A DNA stretch of 64,000 bases, taken from sequence record MW250785; one strand, given 5' to 3'. Every line of letters starts with the position of its first letter. The first letter of the stretch is position 1. The DNA is from Escherichia phage UPEC03. Positions 56,691 through 63,665 of the stretch are shown piece after piece. The translations under genes were made by a program, and so were the position numbers. Below the pieces are notes generated by a model that saw only the letters and a list, made by a program, of their open reading frames with translations, searched no databases and was not told where the DNA came from.

Positions 56691-57164
56691 TTAGCCGTCA
56701 TAACCACCACCGCAACGAACATCACCTTCAATGAACAGTTCGCGGTTATCTCTCAGGAGATTGTATTTCTTTTCGAGTTCCGGCCCGAATGCGTCCGCGT
56801 CGTCATACCAGTCATAGTTATAACTTCCGGTTTCCTCGTCGTATTCCGGTTCGTCGCCGCACTCATTGAAGTGAACGATTTTAACATCATCCAGATTCAG
56901 TTCTTTCAGCTTGTCCCAGATGCGGGTTATTTCGACGCTATTACATCCGAACGCTTCCAGTGTGATTGTACCGTCATCATGTACTTGAGGAACACCCCAG
57001 CGCGGACGATGATGAATTTCGGTGATCATATCCATCAGCGATTCAACGTTTGACTCACCGTAAATCTTTGCAACTTCCTGTTCTTTACCAGGGCGGACAA
57101 GTCCTATCCCGATAATGAAACTACTGCTTGAGCTATTGCTCACGAACCCAGAACGGATCTTCAT
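56691..57164 (-). CDS. hypothetical protein, paralogue 1 with N-terminal MKIRSGFVSNSSSSSFI motif
   Basis: First 17 residues identical to ORF 60599..61111, remainder unrelated. Confidence 0.5.
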   Translation of the reverse strand: MKIRSGFVSNSSSSSFIIGIGLVRPGKEQEVAKIYGESNVESLMDMITEIHHRPRWGVPQVHDDGTITLEAFGCNSVEITRIWDKLKELNLDDVKIVHFNECGDEPEYDEETGSYNYDWYDDADAFGPELEKKYNLLRDNRELFIEGDVRCGGGYDG

Positions 57165-57352
57165 CGCCTTGCCTCGTATTTCGCGTTATCTGCGATTTTC
57201 TCATGATACAGGTTGTATGACAACACCAGCGGGATACAAGCTACTATAAGCCCGATGATAGCCAGTTGATATTCGCGTTTATCGAACGCCATGAATGTAA
57301 TCGTAGCGCCCAGAATAAACACACCTAACGCAATGATGAAGAATAATGTCAT
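57161..57352 (-). CDS. hypothetical small membrane protein (two TM helices)
   Basis: ORF with 4-nt overlaps on both sides. Confidence 0.4.
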   Translation of the reverse strand: MTLFFIIALGVFILGATITFMAFDKREYQLAIIGLIVACIPLVLSYNLYHEKIADNAKYEARR

Positions 57353-57975
57353 TTTGGCAGGGTATCCATTTCACGAGATTTTGCTTTCAGGATGTCAATC
57401 ACAGTAGTCATCGCCTGTTCTACATCACCATCATAGTGAACCAGGAATGTTTTGTGAAGTCCCATGATCAGACGATTGATGATATAAGCCATTTCTGACG
57501 GTAACAGTTTACCATTCTGGCGATCGTACTTTCCAAACAAGCGGTAGAGTTCTGCGCTGTTGCCTGGCTTCTCAATGCTGAAATTATGCATCCCAGACAG
57601 AATACCATCCAGATACAGAACAGTTTTGTTATCACTACGCAGGTGTCCGCCGACCTTGTAGTAGTTGCTGAATACATACGGTTTTTCGCGGATATCTTCG
57701 ATATCGAAATCACCATGATCTTCGATGTTGCCAACATGGGCGAAGAAATGATGATCTTCCAGTTCGAGAAGGATTGCACCCTTTTTGTATGGGAATCCGA
57801 CTAAATCGATCTGCCAGCCATTTTCACCGACAAAGACATCATCGACAACCACGAAATCCGGCAGCATAGGCGCGTATGCGTGGTTCTTTTCGTTGTTTTC
57901 ACGATAGGCTTGTGGTTCGGACAGATACAGGATATCGCCTTTTACAACTTCACCCCAGAATACGTTACGTGACAT
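57349..57975 (-). CDS. hypothetical protein (208 aa)
   Basis: Start moved to internal ATG with GAGGAAA SD because the longer ORF would translate through the hairpin at ~57993-58008. Confidence 0.45.
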   Translation of the reverse strand: MSRNVFWGEVVKGDILYLSEPQAYRENNEKNHAYAPMLPDFVVVDDVFVGENGWQIDLVGFPYKKGAILLELEDHHFFAHVGNIEDHGDFDIEDIREKPYVFSNYYKVGGHLRSDNKTVLYLDGILSGMHNFSIEKPGNSAELYRLFGKYDRQNGKLLPSEMAYIINRLIMGLHKTFLVHYDGDVEQAMTTVIDILKAKSREMDTLPK

Positions 57976-58016
57976 ATTATTTTCCTCAATATGCCCCCTT
58001 TCGGGGGCGGTCATTG

Positions 58017-60263
58017 TTAGATTTTGACTTCTTTTTCTTCCAGGACGATTTCACATTCGAATGATGTGGTTTCCCAGACTTTCCAGAAATCGGATGGAAT
58101 ATTATCTTCTTTCGGAAGAATATCTTTTGCAGCGATAGAAACTTTGGTTTCTTCGAAGTCCAGATCCGCGAACCATGCATGGGCTACTACAACACCGTAC
58201 ATTACGCGACTTAAACGGGCATTCAGTTTACGGACTTCCTGAATCGTTGCCTTTGTCTGCTTATCAAGATACTCGACTACCTGATCTTTGTCAAGCGCAT
58301 CCAGTTCAGATTTCACCTGATCGTAAGCCCACAGGATAATCAGGTCGCCGTTGTTCAGTTTCTTCTTACCTTCGTCACGTTTCGCGACGGTAGCCGCTAC
58401 AGCAGGAAGGGAGGAAACACCCTTGACTTTCACGTTCAGTTCTTTCGACATGTAAACATCAGTCGATTCTGTGCGCTCAACCTTCGGAGAGAACCCGTAA
58501 TCACGAATATCCTGTTCAGACAGCCATTCACCCGCTGCATCACCAAAGCGCTGTTTCAGCCCTTCTGCGTTGCGCAGTCCGATCGCGTTGTCACGGAAGA
58601 ACTTCATAACCTTCTGACGGCCTTTCAGGATTTCCAGACGCACGTTATCAGTCACGAACTCTTTACCGCTTAACCCGCGAGTCATGCCACGGTTAACCAG
58701 AGGCAGAGAGGTAAAGTCTACCAGTACCGACATACGGTCATCACCGATTTTTTCCAGCGGCTTGATAGTCAGGCCAGAAGCGCGAAGGTTTTTCAGTGTC
58801 GGAATATCAGTTTCCAGCGGCAGAACTTTCACGTTCACGATACCATCTTTAACGATGGTGAAGTTACGCACCTGCTTAGTTTCGATTTTTTCCGGCAGAC
58901 CGAATTCTTTCTGTTTGCTTTCTGGGATAGTCACATACCCTTCCAGATCCGTGTTGATGGAAATGTTAGGACGGGAACTGTTACCCACCAGATGTTTAAC
59001 CGATACTTTGGTTGTGGTCTGGGTAAATTTCGGTGTCCAGACTTCATGCGCTACCATTTGCGCCGCCAGTGCTTTACGTTCTTCTGGGATTGCAGCGTTT
59101 GCGATCTGTTCGGTCAGTTGATCCAGTGTATCATCTTCTTTCTGTACAGTCTGACGGCCTGTGCGGTTATACGCCCAGTGCTCAGAAGACAGGTCGATCA
59201 CTGTGTCAGTTTGTGCCAGCAGTTCGAGCGCATCAACCAGAGTGAACGCGTTTTCGTCTGGAACCATGTTGTAATCAATACCATCAACGAAACGCTGTGA
59301 TGGATCTACAACAGCCTGTGCAATCAGGTCTTTCGCGTTGGAGTAGTCCTGTTTGGTAAAGCAGTTGTCATACGCCTTGATCAGACGGACATCACCCAGC
59401 TTTTGAAGCACTTTCCATGCCAGATCAGGGTTCATTGTGTGCAGTGCATGATAAAGCACGACATACAGAACTTGCTGTTCGCTGGCGATGTTCGGATCGA
59501 ATCCGTCAACATCATTAATCGCGTTTTCACCCAGCGCCCAGATGTTTTTGATGTGTTCTGGAACTAGCACAACACCGTTTGCAGCGTTCAGGACATACAC
59601 GCACCCTTCGTCCAGGTAGATCGCATGGGTAGCATCAGCAACTTTGACTTCGATACGCGCGGAAGTCTGCGCGGTGATGATTTCGTTAAATGCTGGTTCG
59701 TATGCGTCGAAACCTTCAACGAATTTGTGCAATGCGTTGGTTGCTTCTGCCATTTTTTCCAGCAGAGGACGGTTTACATAATAACCGTATTCCAGGAACG
59801 CGATACTGTTGAAAGTCAGTGGCAGAACCGCACACGCTTTCAGAATATCATCGGTACGCCAGCAGTTATCATAACCATCAGTCAGGAAGATCAGGCTGTT
59901 CAGGTTGCCGTTTTCAGATTGCAGATCGGTAGCGATTTCCGCAGCCAGATTCAACGGCTCAACAAAGCCAGTACAACCCGTAGGTTTCAGGTAACGGTCG
60001 ATAGCCGCGCAGATGTTAGACAGGTCAGAGACATTGCTAACCTTCTCACCACGGAACACCGTGCCGTAATCGCCTTTGCTGGAGAAGTACAGGATCGAAA
60101 CGGTGTCATCCTGTTTAACCAGACTCGCCAGATTTGCTTTCAGGTGTTTACGGATCTTAGGCAGTTCGTTGTACATTGAACCGGATACGTCACACACGAA
60201 AACGTGGTTTGTCGGGGTTGGCTTCGATACAGCGTTTTTGAATTCGATATTTGTGATTGACAT
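58017..60263 (-). CDS. large von Willebrand factor A (vWA) domain protein, 748 aa
   Basis: N-terminal MIDAS-type motif VFVCDVSGSM (DxSxS) and downstream FLTDGYDN; C-terminal ~550 aa without recognisable domain. Confidence 0.7.
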   Translation of the reverse strand: MSITNIEFKNAVSKPTPTNHVFVCDVSGSMYNELPKIRKHLKANLASLVKQDDTVSILYFSSKGDYGTVFRGEKVSNVSDLSNICAAIDRYLKPTGCTGFVEPLNLAAEIATDLQSENGNLNSLIFLTDGYDNCWRTDDILKACAVLPLTFNSIAFLEYGYYVNRPLLEKMAEATNALHKFVEGFDAYEPAFNEIITAQTSARIEVKVADATHAIYLDEGCVYVLNAANGVVLVPEHIKNIWALGENAINDVDGFDPNIASEQQVLYVVLYHALHTMNPDLAWKVLQKLGDVRLIKAYDNCFTKQDYSNAKDLIAQAVVDPSQRFVDGIDYNMVPDENAFTLVDALELLAQTDTVIDLSSEHWAYNRTGRQTVQKEDDTLDQLTEQIANAAIPEERKALAAQMVAHEVWTPKFTQTTTKVSVKHLVGNSSRPNISINTDLEGYVTIPESKQKEFGLPEKIETKQVRNFTIVKDGIVNVKVLPLETDIPTLKNLRASGLTIKPLEKIGDDRMSVLVDFTSLPLVNRGMTRGLSGKEFVTDNVRLEILKGRQKVMKFFRDNAIGLRNAEGLKQRFGDAAGEWLSEQDIRDYGFSPKVERTESTDVYMSKELNVKVKGVSSLPAVAATVAKRDEGKKKLNNGDLIILWAYDQVKSELDALDKDQVVEYLDKQTKATIQEVRKLNARLSRVMYGVVVAHAWFADLDFEETKVSIAAKDILPKEDNIPSDFWKVWETTSFECEIVLEEKEVKI

Positions 60264-60599
60264 TTAAATTTTCTCGTATTTGAATTTTTCTAAAATTTCG
60301 TTAACTTTATTGCTTACTGCTTCGACTGTACGATCACACCCGAACTTACGCGCCAGGAGTTCAACGTATTCATCCATCGTAGTGAGTTTGGATTCTGCAA
60401 CGTCAAACGCAAGCGCATACATTACTGGATTCAATACTCGAACGATTTGGAGAGTATACTCGTTCAGTTCAAAACGTTCAAGATATTTTCGCAGAGAAAA
60501 TACATCAAACGGTGCGGGGCGATCCTGGCTAAAGGGGATCGACTCCCCTAATGCATAGCGAGGCATAACAACACAGACTTCGGTTTTTAACTTATCCAT
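60264..60599 (-). CDS. hypothetical protein
   Basis: ORF abutting vWA gene start. Confidence 0.45.
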   Translation of the reverse strand: MDKLKTEVCVVMPRYALGESIPFSQDRPAPFDVFSLRKYLERFELNEYTLQIVRVLNPVMYALAFDVAESKLTTMDEYVELLARKFGCDRTVEAVSNKVNEILEKFKYEKI

Positions 60600-61111
60600 C
60601 AGTGATGACTCTTTGATGTGTGTTCAAGGTTACGGAAGATGTTTCCATGTTCCAGTTGAGTTCCGATCGGGCCGCATTCATCGGAGTACGTGAATTCATA
60701 GATAAACACGCCGTCCTGATTGCCATACTTCGTGTTGTACTCTTCATACAACCACATTTTGATCAGAGCGTCTTTCTCTTCTGTGTCCAGATCGTACCAG
60801 TCTCGCCCGTCATACGCAAGCGCAATTTGAGGGTTTGAACGGTAGCGGGTTTCTGCGCTTTCTTCGGTTTCCCAGTCATAGCGTTTATCGTCGTAGAACG
60901 ATTCAAAGCTATTACCCAGATGACCGCCTAAGTCACGGTGAACATGATTGACCACTTCTTCCGCTGTTAACGGAGGATTGTAGTAACCGCAGTTCGGAAC
61001 GCAATCACCCATCATTTCGCGCAGGTTGTCGATATTAGTCGGATCTTTCGGGAACCGGACGATGAAACTACTTGATGAACTGTTGCTCACAAAACCAGAA
61101 CGGATTTTCAT
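60599..61111 (-). CDS. hypothetical protein, paralogue 2 with N-terminal MKIRSGFVSNSSSSSFI motif
   Basis: See 56691..57164. Confidence 0.5.
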   Translation of the reverse strand: MKIRSGFVSNSSSSSFIVRFPKDPTNIDNLREMMGDCVPNCGYYNPPLTAEEVVNHVHRDLGGHLGNSFESFYDDKRYDWETEESAETRYRSNPQIALAYDGRDWYDLDTEEKDALIKMWLYEEYNTKYGNQDGVFIYEFTYSDECGPIGTQLEHGNIFRNLEHTSKSHH

Positions 61112-62170: not shown

Positions 62171-62250
62171 GGTATGTTCCTTTTCAGTTTCGTTTCGGTA
62201 AAGCTAATGTATCACTATCCTGGTCAGTATGCAATGTTTAATTTTGCAAA
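62171..62250 (-). promoter_or_regulatory. cassette copy: -35 TTGCAT, 17-nt spacer, -10 TACATT, leader ...CCGAAACGAAACTGAAAAGGAAC
   Basis: Read on minus strand. Confidence 0.45.
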
Positions 62251-62760
62251 TTTACCAAAATGTTTTATCGCTTCCCGATCGTATGCTTTTGCAGCCTCGT
62301 ATTCGTCACGATAGGAACCGATATGTTTAACCTTGCCGTCAATCTTTATCTGTGCAATGTAACGTATTCCAGTAGGTTGATCACGTACACATACACCCTT
62401 GAATCGACTGGTTGCTACTCTTCGTTTAGTCCGGTTCTGACAGTTTCGGGATTGATCCGCTTCACGCAAGTTATCAATCCCGTCGCCAGCCTCAACACCA
62501 TTTTTATGATCAATCACATCAGGCAGTTTTCCGGTTGCAACGTAGTAGATGATTCGATGACGTAGATATCCTTTGCTTTTGAAATAAACGCGGGTATATC
62601 CTCCTTTAATCTTCGAACCTACTTCCTTTCCGATCAAGTCAGAACGTTTGTGTGACGTTCGTATAATTGTCCCCGTTTGTATATCAACAGAAACAGTTTT
62701 AAGGAATTCGTCAATTCCTTTCTGTTCTTCTTCGATTGTTCTTAGTCCGTTGTGTGACAT
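62224..62760 (-). CDS. HNH homing endonuclease with AP2 domain (paralogue D)
   Basis: RHRIIYYVATGKLPDVIDHKNGVEAGDGIDNLR + AP2-like SRFKGVCV...HIGSYRDEYEAAKAY; overlaps 3' end of C5-MTase gene. Confidence 0.8.
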   Translation of the reverse strand: MSHNGLRTIEEEQKGIDEFLKTVSVDIQTGTIIRTSHKRSDLIGKEVGSKIKGGYTRVYFKSKGYLRHRIIYYVATGKLPDVIDHKNGVEAGDGIDNLREADQSRNCQNRTKRRVATSRFKGVCVRDQPTGIRYIAQIKIDGKVKHIGSYRDEYEAAKAYDREAIKHFGKFAKLNIAY

Positions 62761-63665
62761 AACACCTTCTTGATTTGTTTTGCTATAGCCTCGATTACTG
62801 GTATTGAAACAGAATTACCTGCTTGTTTATACGCTTGCATCTTGCTTTTGTTGATAATAAACGAATCTGGGAAACCCTGCAAACGAAAACACTCACGGGG
62901 AGTAAGTCTTCGGGGGTTCTTTCCTTCCTGCAATACCAGACATTGAACACCATCTTTATAGTAATTTGCAGTGATAGTCCCAGTGTGCGTAGAATCGCTT
63001 GTGACGGCCTGATAACCGAAACCCTTACCGTTTGCCTTATTTCGTTCCTTACGCTCTCTAAAGCCCTTCCATGCGTTATCTGACAGGGTGAACGAATCAT
63101 CAGCATCTTCGAGGATGTCGCCTACGCGTGTAGGGGTACGCGGGGGAACCGGAAACGAAAAGAATACATCATCCAGGAAGCAGACAATAAACACGCGTTC
63201 CCGTCTTTGGGGTAGTCCGAAATCCTTTGTGTTCAGGCGTTGATAGAATACGTTATATCCTTCGGCCTCCAGAAGCCCGTAAATCGTTTTAAACGTCTTC
63301 CCCTTGTCATGGGTTAGCAGTTCAGGCACGTTCTCAAAGAACAACACACGGGGCTTTTTAGCGCGTATAATGCGGAGGATTTCGAAGAACACCGTACCGC
63401 GTACATCATCAAAGCCCAGTTTCAATCCGGCTTTACTGAACGCCTGACACGGGAACCCCGCGAGCAGGATATCATGATCAGGTACTTTGTTTTCATCAAT
63501 GGCGAATAGATCACCCTGTAGGTTATCATCGCCCCAGTTTTCGATATATGTTTGCTGTGCGAACTTGTCGATTTCAGACGTTAAAAGGCATTCGACACCG
63601 CCGAACGCCTTATCAAATCCTAATCGAACCCCGCCCACACCAGCGCAGAGGTCAATTATTTTCAT
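62742..63665 (-). CDS. DNA (cytosine-5)-methyltransferase (Dcm-like)
   Basis: Motif I DLCAGVGG, motif IV GFPCQAFS, motif VI ENV, motif VIII QRRERVFIV, motif X GNSV. Confidence 0.8.
   Translation of the reverse strand: MKIIDLCAGVGGVRLGFDKAFGGVECLLTSEIDKFAQQTYIENWGDDNLQGDLFAIDENKVPDHDILLAGFPCQAFSKAGLKLGFDDVRGTVFFEILRIIRAKKPRVLFFENVPELLTHDKGKTFKTIYGLLEAEGYNVFYQRLNTKDFGLPQRRERVFIVCFLDDVFFSFPVPPRTPTRVGDILEDADDSFTLSDNAWKGFRERKERNKANGKGFGYQAVTSDSTHTGTITANYYKDGVQCLVLQEGKNPRRLTPRECFRLQGFPDSFIINKSKMQAYKQAGNSVSIPVIEAIAKQIKKVLCHTTD

Follow-up and report, generated by a model that had tools for sequence, protein, structure and literature searches.

A conserved N-terminal tag on diverse phage proteins and its linkage to a radical-SAM/SPASM enzyme family

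The two tagged genes and their codons

The analysed stretch of Escherichia phage UPEC03 (sequence record MW250785; 64,000 nucleotides, referred to below as the window) contains two small open reading frames (ORFs), A and B, that start with the same 17 residues, MKIRSGFVSNSSSSSFI, and continue into different bodies. This shared N-terminus, here called the tag, is found on a large superfamily of phage proteins whose genes are associated with one family of radical-SAM/SPASM enzymes, by which the tag is probably recognized and modified. The phage is T4-like and of the RB43/RB16/GAP161 type (Pseudotevenvirus). Enterobacter phage EC-W1 and Cronobacter phages leN and leE share 98.6% identity with the window over 5 kb around ORFs A and B.

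ORF A (56691..57164, minus strand) encodes a protein of 157 residues, with the tag at codons 1-17 (57114..57164, minus strand). Its body belongs to a class with the signature GDEPEYD...YNYD...G(A/G)G(Y/R)(N/D)G-COOH and contains an acidic motif, GDEPEYDEETGSYNYDWYDD (residues 103-122; 56799..56858, minus strand), which is kept within the class, both in alignments and in the sequences. The protein ends in the glycine-rich sequence CGGGYDG (56694..56714, minus strand), and a number of other body classes have similar ends. ORF B (60599..61111, minus strand) encodes 170 residues and has its tag, likewise codons 1-17, at 61061..61111 (minus strand). Its body class, Y[SA]D..G...(L/M)EHGNIFR...SHH-COOH, corresponds to phrog_7397. 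Residues 142-170 of ORF B (60602..60688, minus strand) form a C-terminal block that is conserved in an alignment of 125 sequences, in which Asp144, His155 and Phe159 are invariant and the terminal His170 is nearly so. Each of the two ORFs begins at an ATGA overlap with the ORF before it, in a tightly packed block of leftward genes.

At the protein level the two tags are exactly identical, as had been noticed in a sequence-only reading of the window. At the DNA level they differ in 7 of the 17 codons and in 9 of the 51 nucleotides (82% identity), and all these differences are synonymous, including one in which the serine codon changes family (AGC versus TCA). From codon 18 onward each codon is non-synonymous between ORFs A and B. 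BLASTP aligns the two proteins only at residues 1-18 and a comparison of the family profiles with hhalign only at residues 1-35, which agrees with the earlier statement that the bodies are unrelated: past approximately residue 35 no similarity is detectable by either method. Among 253 tagged ORFs that were collected through the enzyme, independently of any selection for the tag (see below), each serine position of the tag uses both TCN and AGY codons, with TCN accounting for 30-58%. Because the differences between ORFs A and B are synonymous and the serine codon families are mixed in the 253 members, the tag is under selection at the level of the peptide and not of the DNA. The sequence-only reading had proposed just this, in preference to a recent duplication.

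The identity of 82% over 51 nucleotides and the ATGA-overlap starts of both ORFs are what a rival explanation could build on, in which the shared segment results from recent duplication or gene conversion, or is itself a DNA- or RNA-level element such as a regulatory sequence or a recombination cassette. Such an origin is extremely improbable: the synonymous nature of all nine differences, the serine codon switch, the presence of both serine codon families at each position and the invariance of the peptide across phyla all speak against it, and the codon data exclude an explanation at the DNA level. Control of the tagged ORFs by T4 late promoters is also rejected, the consensus TATAAATA being absent from the entire 64-kb window. 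Approximately two occurrences would be expected in it by chance, and none is found despite the presence of baseplate genes. Sites resembling sigma-70 promoters occur in the window at chance level only.

Extent and modularity of the tagged superfamily

The window contains no third copy of the tag, and in the whole genome of phage leE the homologues of ORFs A and B are the only two tagged ORFs. In other phages further ORFs with this start are very numerous. In the 253 enzyme-seeded members the tag follows the logo M1 K2 [ITV]3 R4 x5 G6 F7 V8 S9 N10 S11 S12 S13 [STAC]14 S15 F16 [IVCL]17-18, and ORFs A and B match the motif MK[ITV]RxGFVSNSSS[STAC]SF exactly at their extreme N-termini. Arg4, which the filter used for this logo did not demand, is present in 253 of 253 sequences, as is Ser11, and Asn10 is present in 252. 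The bodies of these 253 ORFs fall into 70 clusters.

Searching DNA with a degenerate pattern of the tag retrieves at least 120 viral stretches, on contigs of 6-548 kb and with up to six matches per stretch. From the viral pattern stretches listed, together with loci L001-L004 and the window, at least 246 complete tagged ORFs were extracted, with lengths of 20-305 residues (median 132). A glycine lies exactly five residues past the start codon in 227 of the 246. In 240 of the ORFs the tag is followed by at least 30 residues, and the bodies of these form 65 BLASTP clusters among the matches listed, with Cys-rich proteins resembling zinc ribbons among them and glycine-rich C-termini in several classes. 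The tag is a modular N-terminal element found on approximately 70 unrelated body classes, and the earlier suggestion of one module shared by different bodies is amply confirmed, as 65-70 body classes not linked by BLAST are headed by it.

The families of ORFs A and B differ greatly in size. A profile search with ORF B-type sequences finds at least 6,891 protein clusters at E ≤ 1 among the 8,000 candidates listed, and none of these clusters has a Pfam domain. Members of the ORF B family are 154-285 residues long, with Arg4, Gly6, Phe7, Ser9, Asn10, Ser11-13 and Phe16 invariant at the N-terminus, the C-terminal block conserved, and a middle part that is hypervariable and of variable length. The ORF A family is narrow and comprises 35 clusters, with a body GDEPEYD...YNYD...DWF and the end G(A/G)G(Y/R)(N/D)G. 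When the ORF A body alone, with the tag removed, is used in an exhaustive HMMER search of 1.84 billion proteins, 36 representatives are found. The tag starts 25 of the 27 of these representatives that were read, and the remaining two are apparently fusion proteins or have wrongly called starts. The tag is invariant in all homologues, so that its absence from homologues in related phages, which would have refuted the sequence-only reading, is not seen.

The tagged proteins, of approximately 65-300 residues, are encoded in large phages and in certain bacterial islands, and the peptide is invariant across hosts of many bacterial phyla; many of the carriers come from anoxic habitats. Tandem paralogues are present, with four tagged ORFs in a 188-kb contig and seven in a 153-kb contig, and in one T4-like contig a B-like and an A-like tagged ORF lie close together, with just a 113-residue ORF between them. 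The 153-kb phage-like contig (L004) also encodes an 834-residue protein with Vault_3 and MVP_shoulder domains (L004:13581-16085) and a DUF2828/DUF7788 (TROVE/vWA-like) protein (L004:6520-8037). The tag pattern is further found in 69 stretches of bacterial or archaeal genome assemblies, many of which are probably mis-binned phage contigs. It does occur on long contigs of 0.3-2.6 Mb from Veillonella parvula, Acetatifactor muris, a Pirellulales metagenome-assembled genome (MAG) and an Acidobacteriota MAG; the match from Lachnobacterium bovis is on a 27-kb contig.

The tag does not prove to be the start of a known single-domain family, as ORFs A and B have no match in Pfam, NCBIfam or PADLOC. No model in these three libraries covers the tagged proteins, and Pfam matches none of 79 diverse tagged representatives. 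Sequence searches of the Protein Data Bank with ORFs A and B give chance matches only, and a Foldseek search of BFVD with the ORF A model gives nothing significant, the top hit being an S-adenosylmethionine decarboxylase proenzyme (E 0.13). In PHROGs, ORF B is matched over its full length by phrog_7397, a family without an assigned function, to which ORF A is similar at residues 1-20 only. The 79 representatives hit phrog_7397 only, plus phrog_132 for ORF A itself. The latter match (residues 77-148, E 4.5e-9), to a 'head-tail adaptor', is only partial, and this function finds no support for ORF A, given the partial match, the context of small non-structural genes and the body relatives, which, among those read, are almost all small tagged proteins. 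Some Klebsiella phage records label homologues of ORF A as 'head-tail adaptor', apparently from the same partial match. The tagged superfamily is covered in PHROGs by two fragments only, which are function-less or mis-annotated. In the literature, of which the coverage was incomplete, no description was found of the tag motif, of phage radical-SAM/SPASM systems or of the radical-SAM genes of the RB43 group.

Linkage to a radical-SAM/SPASM enzyme family

Around the tagged genes, by far the most recurrent neighbour is a radical-SAM/SPASM enzyme. A hidden Markov model built from four bacterial neighbour enzymes detects the family in 81 of approximately 190 tag-seeded loci. In viral loci the gap between the enzyme and the closest tagged ORF has a median of 284 nucleotides, in genome loci one of 0 nucleotides, and in all 68 tag-seeded cases (68/68) the two genes are on a common strand. 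The association was also tested in reverse, by searching viral contigs with the enzyme alignment alone, which yielded 80 loci, 72 of them not of the RB43 type. At least one tagged ORF is present within 10 kb on either side of the enzyme in 65 of these 72 loci (90%), with a median of 3.5 and a maximum of 10, and all 269 tagged ORFs near enzyme-seeded loci share the strand of the enzyme. Any other gene family is found in at most 12 of 70 enzyme-seeded loci, and no protease or transporter recurs as a neighbour among them. One of the two commonest other neighbours, each in 12 of the 70, is a predicted nucleotidyltransferase of approximately 335 residues (GSxLYG...SDxD), exemplified by L108:7403-8404 and by leE gp131 (76048..77049), the latter representing the RB43-type clade, where the gene lies past ORF B at a distance of a few kb.

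Cultured phages show the same correspondence. Among 50,697 records, the enzyme is found in 172 (tblastn with the phage copy), ORF A in 173 and ORF B in 174. All three are found in the same clade, and the genus counts of the enzyme essentially match those of ORFs A and B, the main addition being Vibrio phage D479. This phage was predicted to carry tagged genes as well, and five are found within 12 kb upstream of its enzyme. In leE, ORF A corresponds to gp117, ORF B to gp122 and the enzyme to gp166 (92,684-93,835), all in the same leftward block and on the same strand. Converted from leE, the position of the enzyme is at approximately 81-82 kb in window coordinates, beyond the end of the window, which is why it could not be seen in the sequence-only reading. 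The tag and this one radical-SAM/SPASM family are reciprocally and tightly linked, in phages as well as in bacteria.

The enzyme matches Pfam Radical_SAM and SPASM, and the copy of the window's clade passes the Pfam threshold for SPASM. By profile comparison, the closest solved relative is SuiB, the maturase that forms the Lys-Trp cross-link of streptide, which is matched over nearly its full length with E 1e-9; SkfB, BtrN and PqqE follow. The best NCBIfam matches are the peptide maturases MftC, WgkB and PqqE, all far under the family cut-offs. In RB43 and leB the enzyme gene is matched in two pieces and annotated as two coding sequences, which suggests an insertion or frameshift. Homing endonuclease genes adjoin the radical-SAM gene in locus L003 and in Vibrio phage D479. 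In the window, an ORF resembling homing endonuclease genes (62224..62760), annotated in leE as a putative homing endonuclease, shares a short overlap with a C5 DNA methyltransferase gene (62742..63665) at the end of the latter.

In bacteria the pair forms a small cassette. A tagged protein of 137 residues (MKIRNGFVTNSSSTSF...) directly precedes the enzyme in Veillonella, Acetatifactor, Lachnobacterium and the Acidobacteriota MAG. An ORF of approximately 136 residues lies upstream of this pair in the bacterial loci, and in the Veillonella and Acetatifactor loci inspected the enzyme is followed by an ORF of approximately 300-330 residues (cassette loci L138, L145 and L171 from Veillonella parvula, L125 from Acetatifactor muris and L165 from Lachnobacterium bovis). 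The scanned Veillonella locus consists of an LmuA/Avs1a-like metallo-beta-lactamase (MBL) gene, a gene for a 925-residue trypsin-NACHT protein (Avs-like), the 136-residue ORF, the 137-residue tagged ORF, the enzyme gene and an ORF of approximately 300 residues; a DMP19-like protein is encoded upstream of the cassette. In Acetatifactor, ORFs that match the MBL and trypsin-NACHT genes in size precede the group, ORFs of corresponding sizes are present in the other genomes, and homologues of the large trypsin-NACHT protein are present in 14 loci. The bacterial cassette may be a defence-island module that has so far gone undescribed.

The sequence-only reading had placed emphasis on the gene between ORFs A and B, which encodes a vWA-domain protein of 748 residues (58017..60263, minus strand; Pfam VWA, VWA_2 and VWA_3 at residues 21-176). 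This emphasis finds poor support. An apparent homologue of 742 residues (phmmer; L260:3475-5703) is present in the unrelated 307-kb jumbo-phage contig IMGVR_UViG_3300037110_000087, approximately 4 kb upstream of an enzyme gene with five tagged ORFs around it, and nine other loci encode small vWA proteins. A specific functional link of the vWA gene with the tagged ORFs is rejected, as recurrence near tagged genes is seen in only one other lineage; the association is weak and the bracketing of this gene is probably incidental. The order A-vWA-B, with near-identical proteins, is also present in an assembly of Flagellimonas marina (NZ_JBHSCL010000010.1; L133, 178,077 bp). This contig resembles an RB43-type enterobacterial phage and so is probably a contaminant.

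Possible function of the tag and comparison with known systems

The tag is probably the recognition and modification site of a dedicated radical-SAM/SPASM maturase, to which the tagged proteins would be functionally coupled. Usually one such enzyme is present per genome, with one to ten tagged genes beside it; the window's clade has two tagged genes, with the enzyme approximately 20 kb further along. The flexible first 11 or so residues and the serine run leading into the first β-strand would provide the docking sequence and the site of modification, where the enzyme would abstract a hydrogen atom and install a cross-link, an oxidation or an epimerisation, while the variable body would supply the function specific to each protein. 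That the tag is a substrate, and not a mere docking or partner element, is suggested by analogy with SPASM maturases that act on conserved motifs. Possible chemistries include an aromatic-to-Cβ cross-link at Phe7 or Phe16, serine oxidation and epimerisation. The sequence-only reading had considered targeting, processing or binding as functions of the tag. This was generic, and the reciprocal co-occurrence with the enzyme favours processing.

Several observations weigh against a role of the tag as a site of modification. The whole case for it is built on genomic association, and the tag matches none of the known recognition motifs with which it was compared. No tagged ORF is present within 10 kb in 7 of the 72 enzyme-seeded loci. 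In the window's clade the enzyme is not adjacent to the tagged genes but approximately 20 kb away, and in none of the RB43-type phages (L199-L206) is a tagged ORF found within 10 kb on either side of it. The enzymes of this clade (L194:32684-33835, which is leE gp166, and L003:11272-12420) have an unusual Cx8CxxC motif (C-NGPAGKL-C-GF-C) instead of CxxxCxxC, although all conserved blocks of the other family members are retained. In addition, the enzyme might have the tagged proteins not as substrates but as partners or as subunits that confer specificity. Finally, in the predicted structures of both proteins SSSFIV, the second half of the tag, forms an integral core β-strand, so that the tag is not a detachable leader.

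These structures were predicted with AlphaFold, with a confidence score (pLDDT) of 85 for both ORFs and a predicted template modelling score (pTM) of 0.79 for ORF A. In the ORF A model residues 1-11 have a pLDDT below 50 and residues 12-23 form the first β-strand; in the ORF B model residues 1-6 and 8-10 are below 50 and residues 13-20 form the first strand. The most conserved residues (1-11) are left unstructured in both models, the remainder being confident, which fits a tag that is accessible to the enzyme. A PP-loop or a flavodoxin-like phosphate loop is rejected, because the serines are followed by a β-strand and not by a helix.

The position of the strand fits a different explanation, in which the tag intrinsically serves structure or ligand binding within a single ancient domain, the bodies are homologues diverged beyond recognition, and the proteins assist the enzyme as partners, carriers or subunits that set its specificity. 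The tag might, for example, form a serine-rich phosphate- or metal-binding loop beside a glycine- or histidine-rich C-terminal end. Similar glycine-rich C-termini are indeed found in many body classes (GGYDG, GAGRNG, GGNDN, GTRYC), and the invariant Asp144 and His155 and the terminal histidine of the ORF B class might combine with the tag into a site. Such a role is plausible, though less probable than modification of the tag.

T4 provides the model for another explanation. Its internal proteins (IPI, IPII, IPIII and Alt) share a capsid-targeting N-terminus of approximately 10-17 residues on otherwise unrelated small proteins. The tag could similarly be a targeting signal that loads cargo into the virion or another compartment: the window phage is T4-like, the tag is strictly N-terminal, and, as with the T4 sequence, several copies per genome are carried by small proteins, here with hypervariable bodies. 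Yet the sequence is different, and neither the two families nor the superfamily logo show a conserved Glu or (L/I)xE site for a prohead protease behind the tag. The genes lie in leftward blocks of small non-structural genes and not with the head genes, and their consistent partner is the radical-SAM enzyme instead of a capsid or portal gene. The tag is also found in bacterial chromosomal cassettes without virion genes nearby. Together these differences make a targeting signal quite improbable.

Recognition and modification of the tag by the radical-SAM/SPASM enzyme would have its closest parallels in systems for peptides that are made on the ribosome and modified after translation (RiPPs). In those of the SPASM type (SuiB-SuiA for streptide, SkfB, PqqE-PqqA), likewise, one enzyme is encoded beside one or more genes that share a short conserved recognition sequence, and a conserved recognition sequence common to several candidate substrate genes per enzyme, which is a hallmark of RiPP systems, is found here as well. 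RiPP precursors, however, are short peptides, whereas the tagged proteins have 65-300 residues, are apparently folded and belong to approximately 70 body classes. Unlike a cleavable RiPP leader, the tag is at the extreme N-terminus and runs into a core β-strand, and no protease, exporter or PqqD-like recognition domain is detected with the tagged system. Its carriers, too, are mostly large lytic phages.

The anaerobic sulfatase-maturating enzyme and the QhpD/QhpC stapling system provide examples in which, as proposed here, an enzyme of the SPASM type acts on a short conserved motif with serine, in proteins and not in peptides. In those systems the substrates belong to one enzyme family, whereas the tagged substrates would be dozens of unrelated proteins. 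The tag lacks the sulfatase-type formylglycine motif (C/S)xPxR. Glycyl-radical proteins have the fingerprint RVxG[FYW] in a buried C-terminal loop and are served by activases of the pyruvate formate-lyase type, which lack SPASM. The segment R4-x-G6-F7-V8 of the tag resembles this fingerprint and is likewise paired with a radical-SAM enzyme, but its arginine is shifted by one position, and the tag is on a flexible N-terminal tail and has a SPASM partner.

The system is most readily described as a radical-SAM/SPASM maturase with motif-bearing, presumed substrates, which are unusual in being folded, diverse and multi-copy phage proteins. A role in the conflict between phage and host is possible, as hinted at by the expansion of paralogues, the hypervariable bodies and the Avs-like neighbours of the bacterial version. 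More tentatively, in large phages of many host phyla and in some Avs-like defence islands of bacteria, one enzyme might covalently modify the invariant tag on up to ten structurally unrelated small proteins per genome in a 'tag-and-modify' system, providing a diversifying conflict arsenal with a common warhead, staple or handle. Such a system would parallel, at the level of proteins, the RiPP pathways with several precursors, and would add a new class to the post-translational modifications of viruses.

If modification of the tag is confirmed, the common tag and its enzyme would give a first functional handle on thousands of phage proteins, and folded, diverse proteins with an N-terminal tag would form a new class of substrates of SPASM radical-SAM enzymes. 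Compact systems would be at hand in cultured phages, with one enzyme and two substrates in those of the RB43, RB16, KP15 and GAP161 type and at least five substrates in Vibrio phage D479. The 16-residue tag could serve as a marker for mining genomes for such systems.

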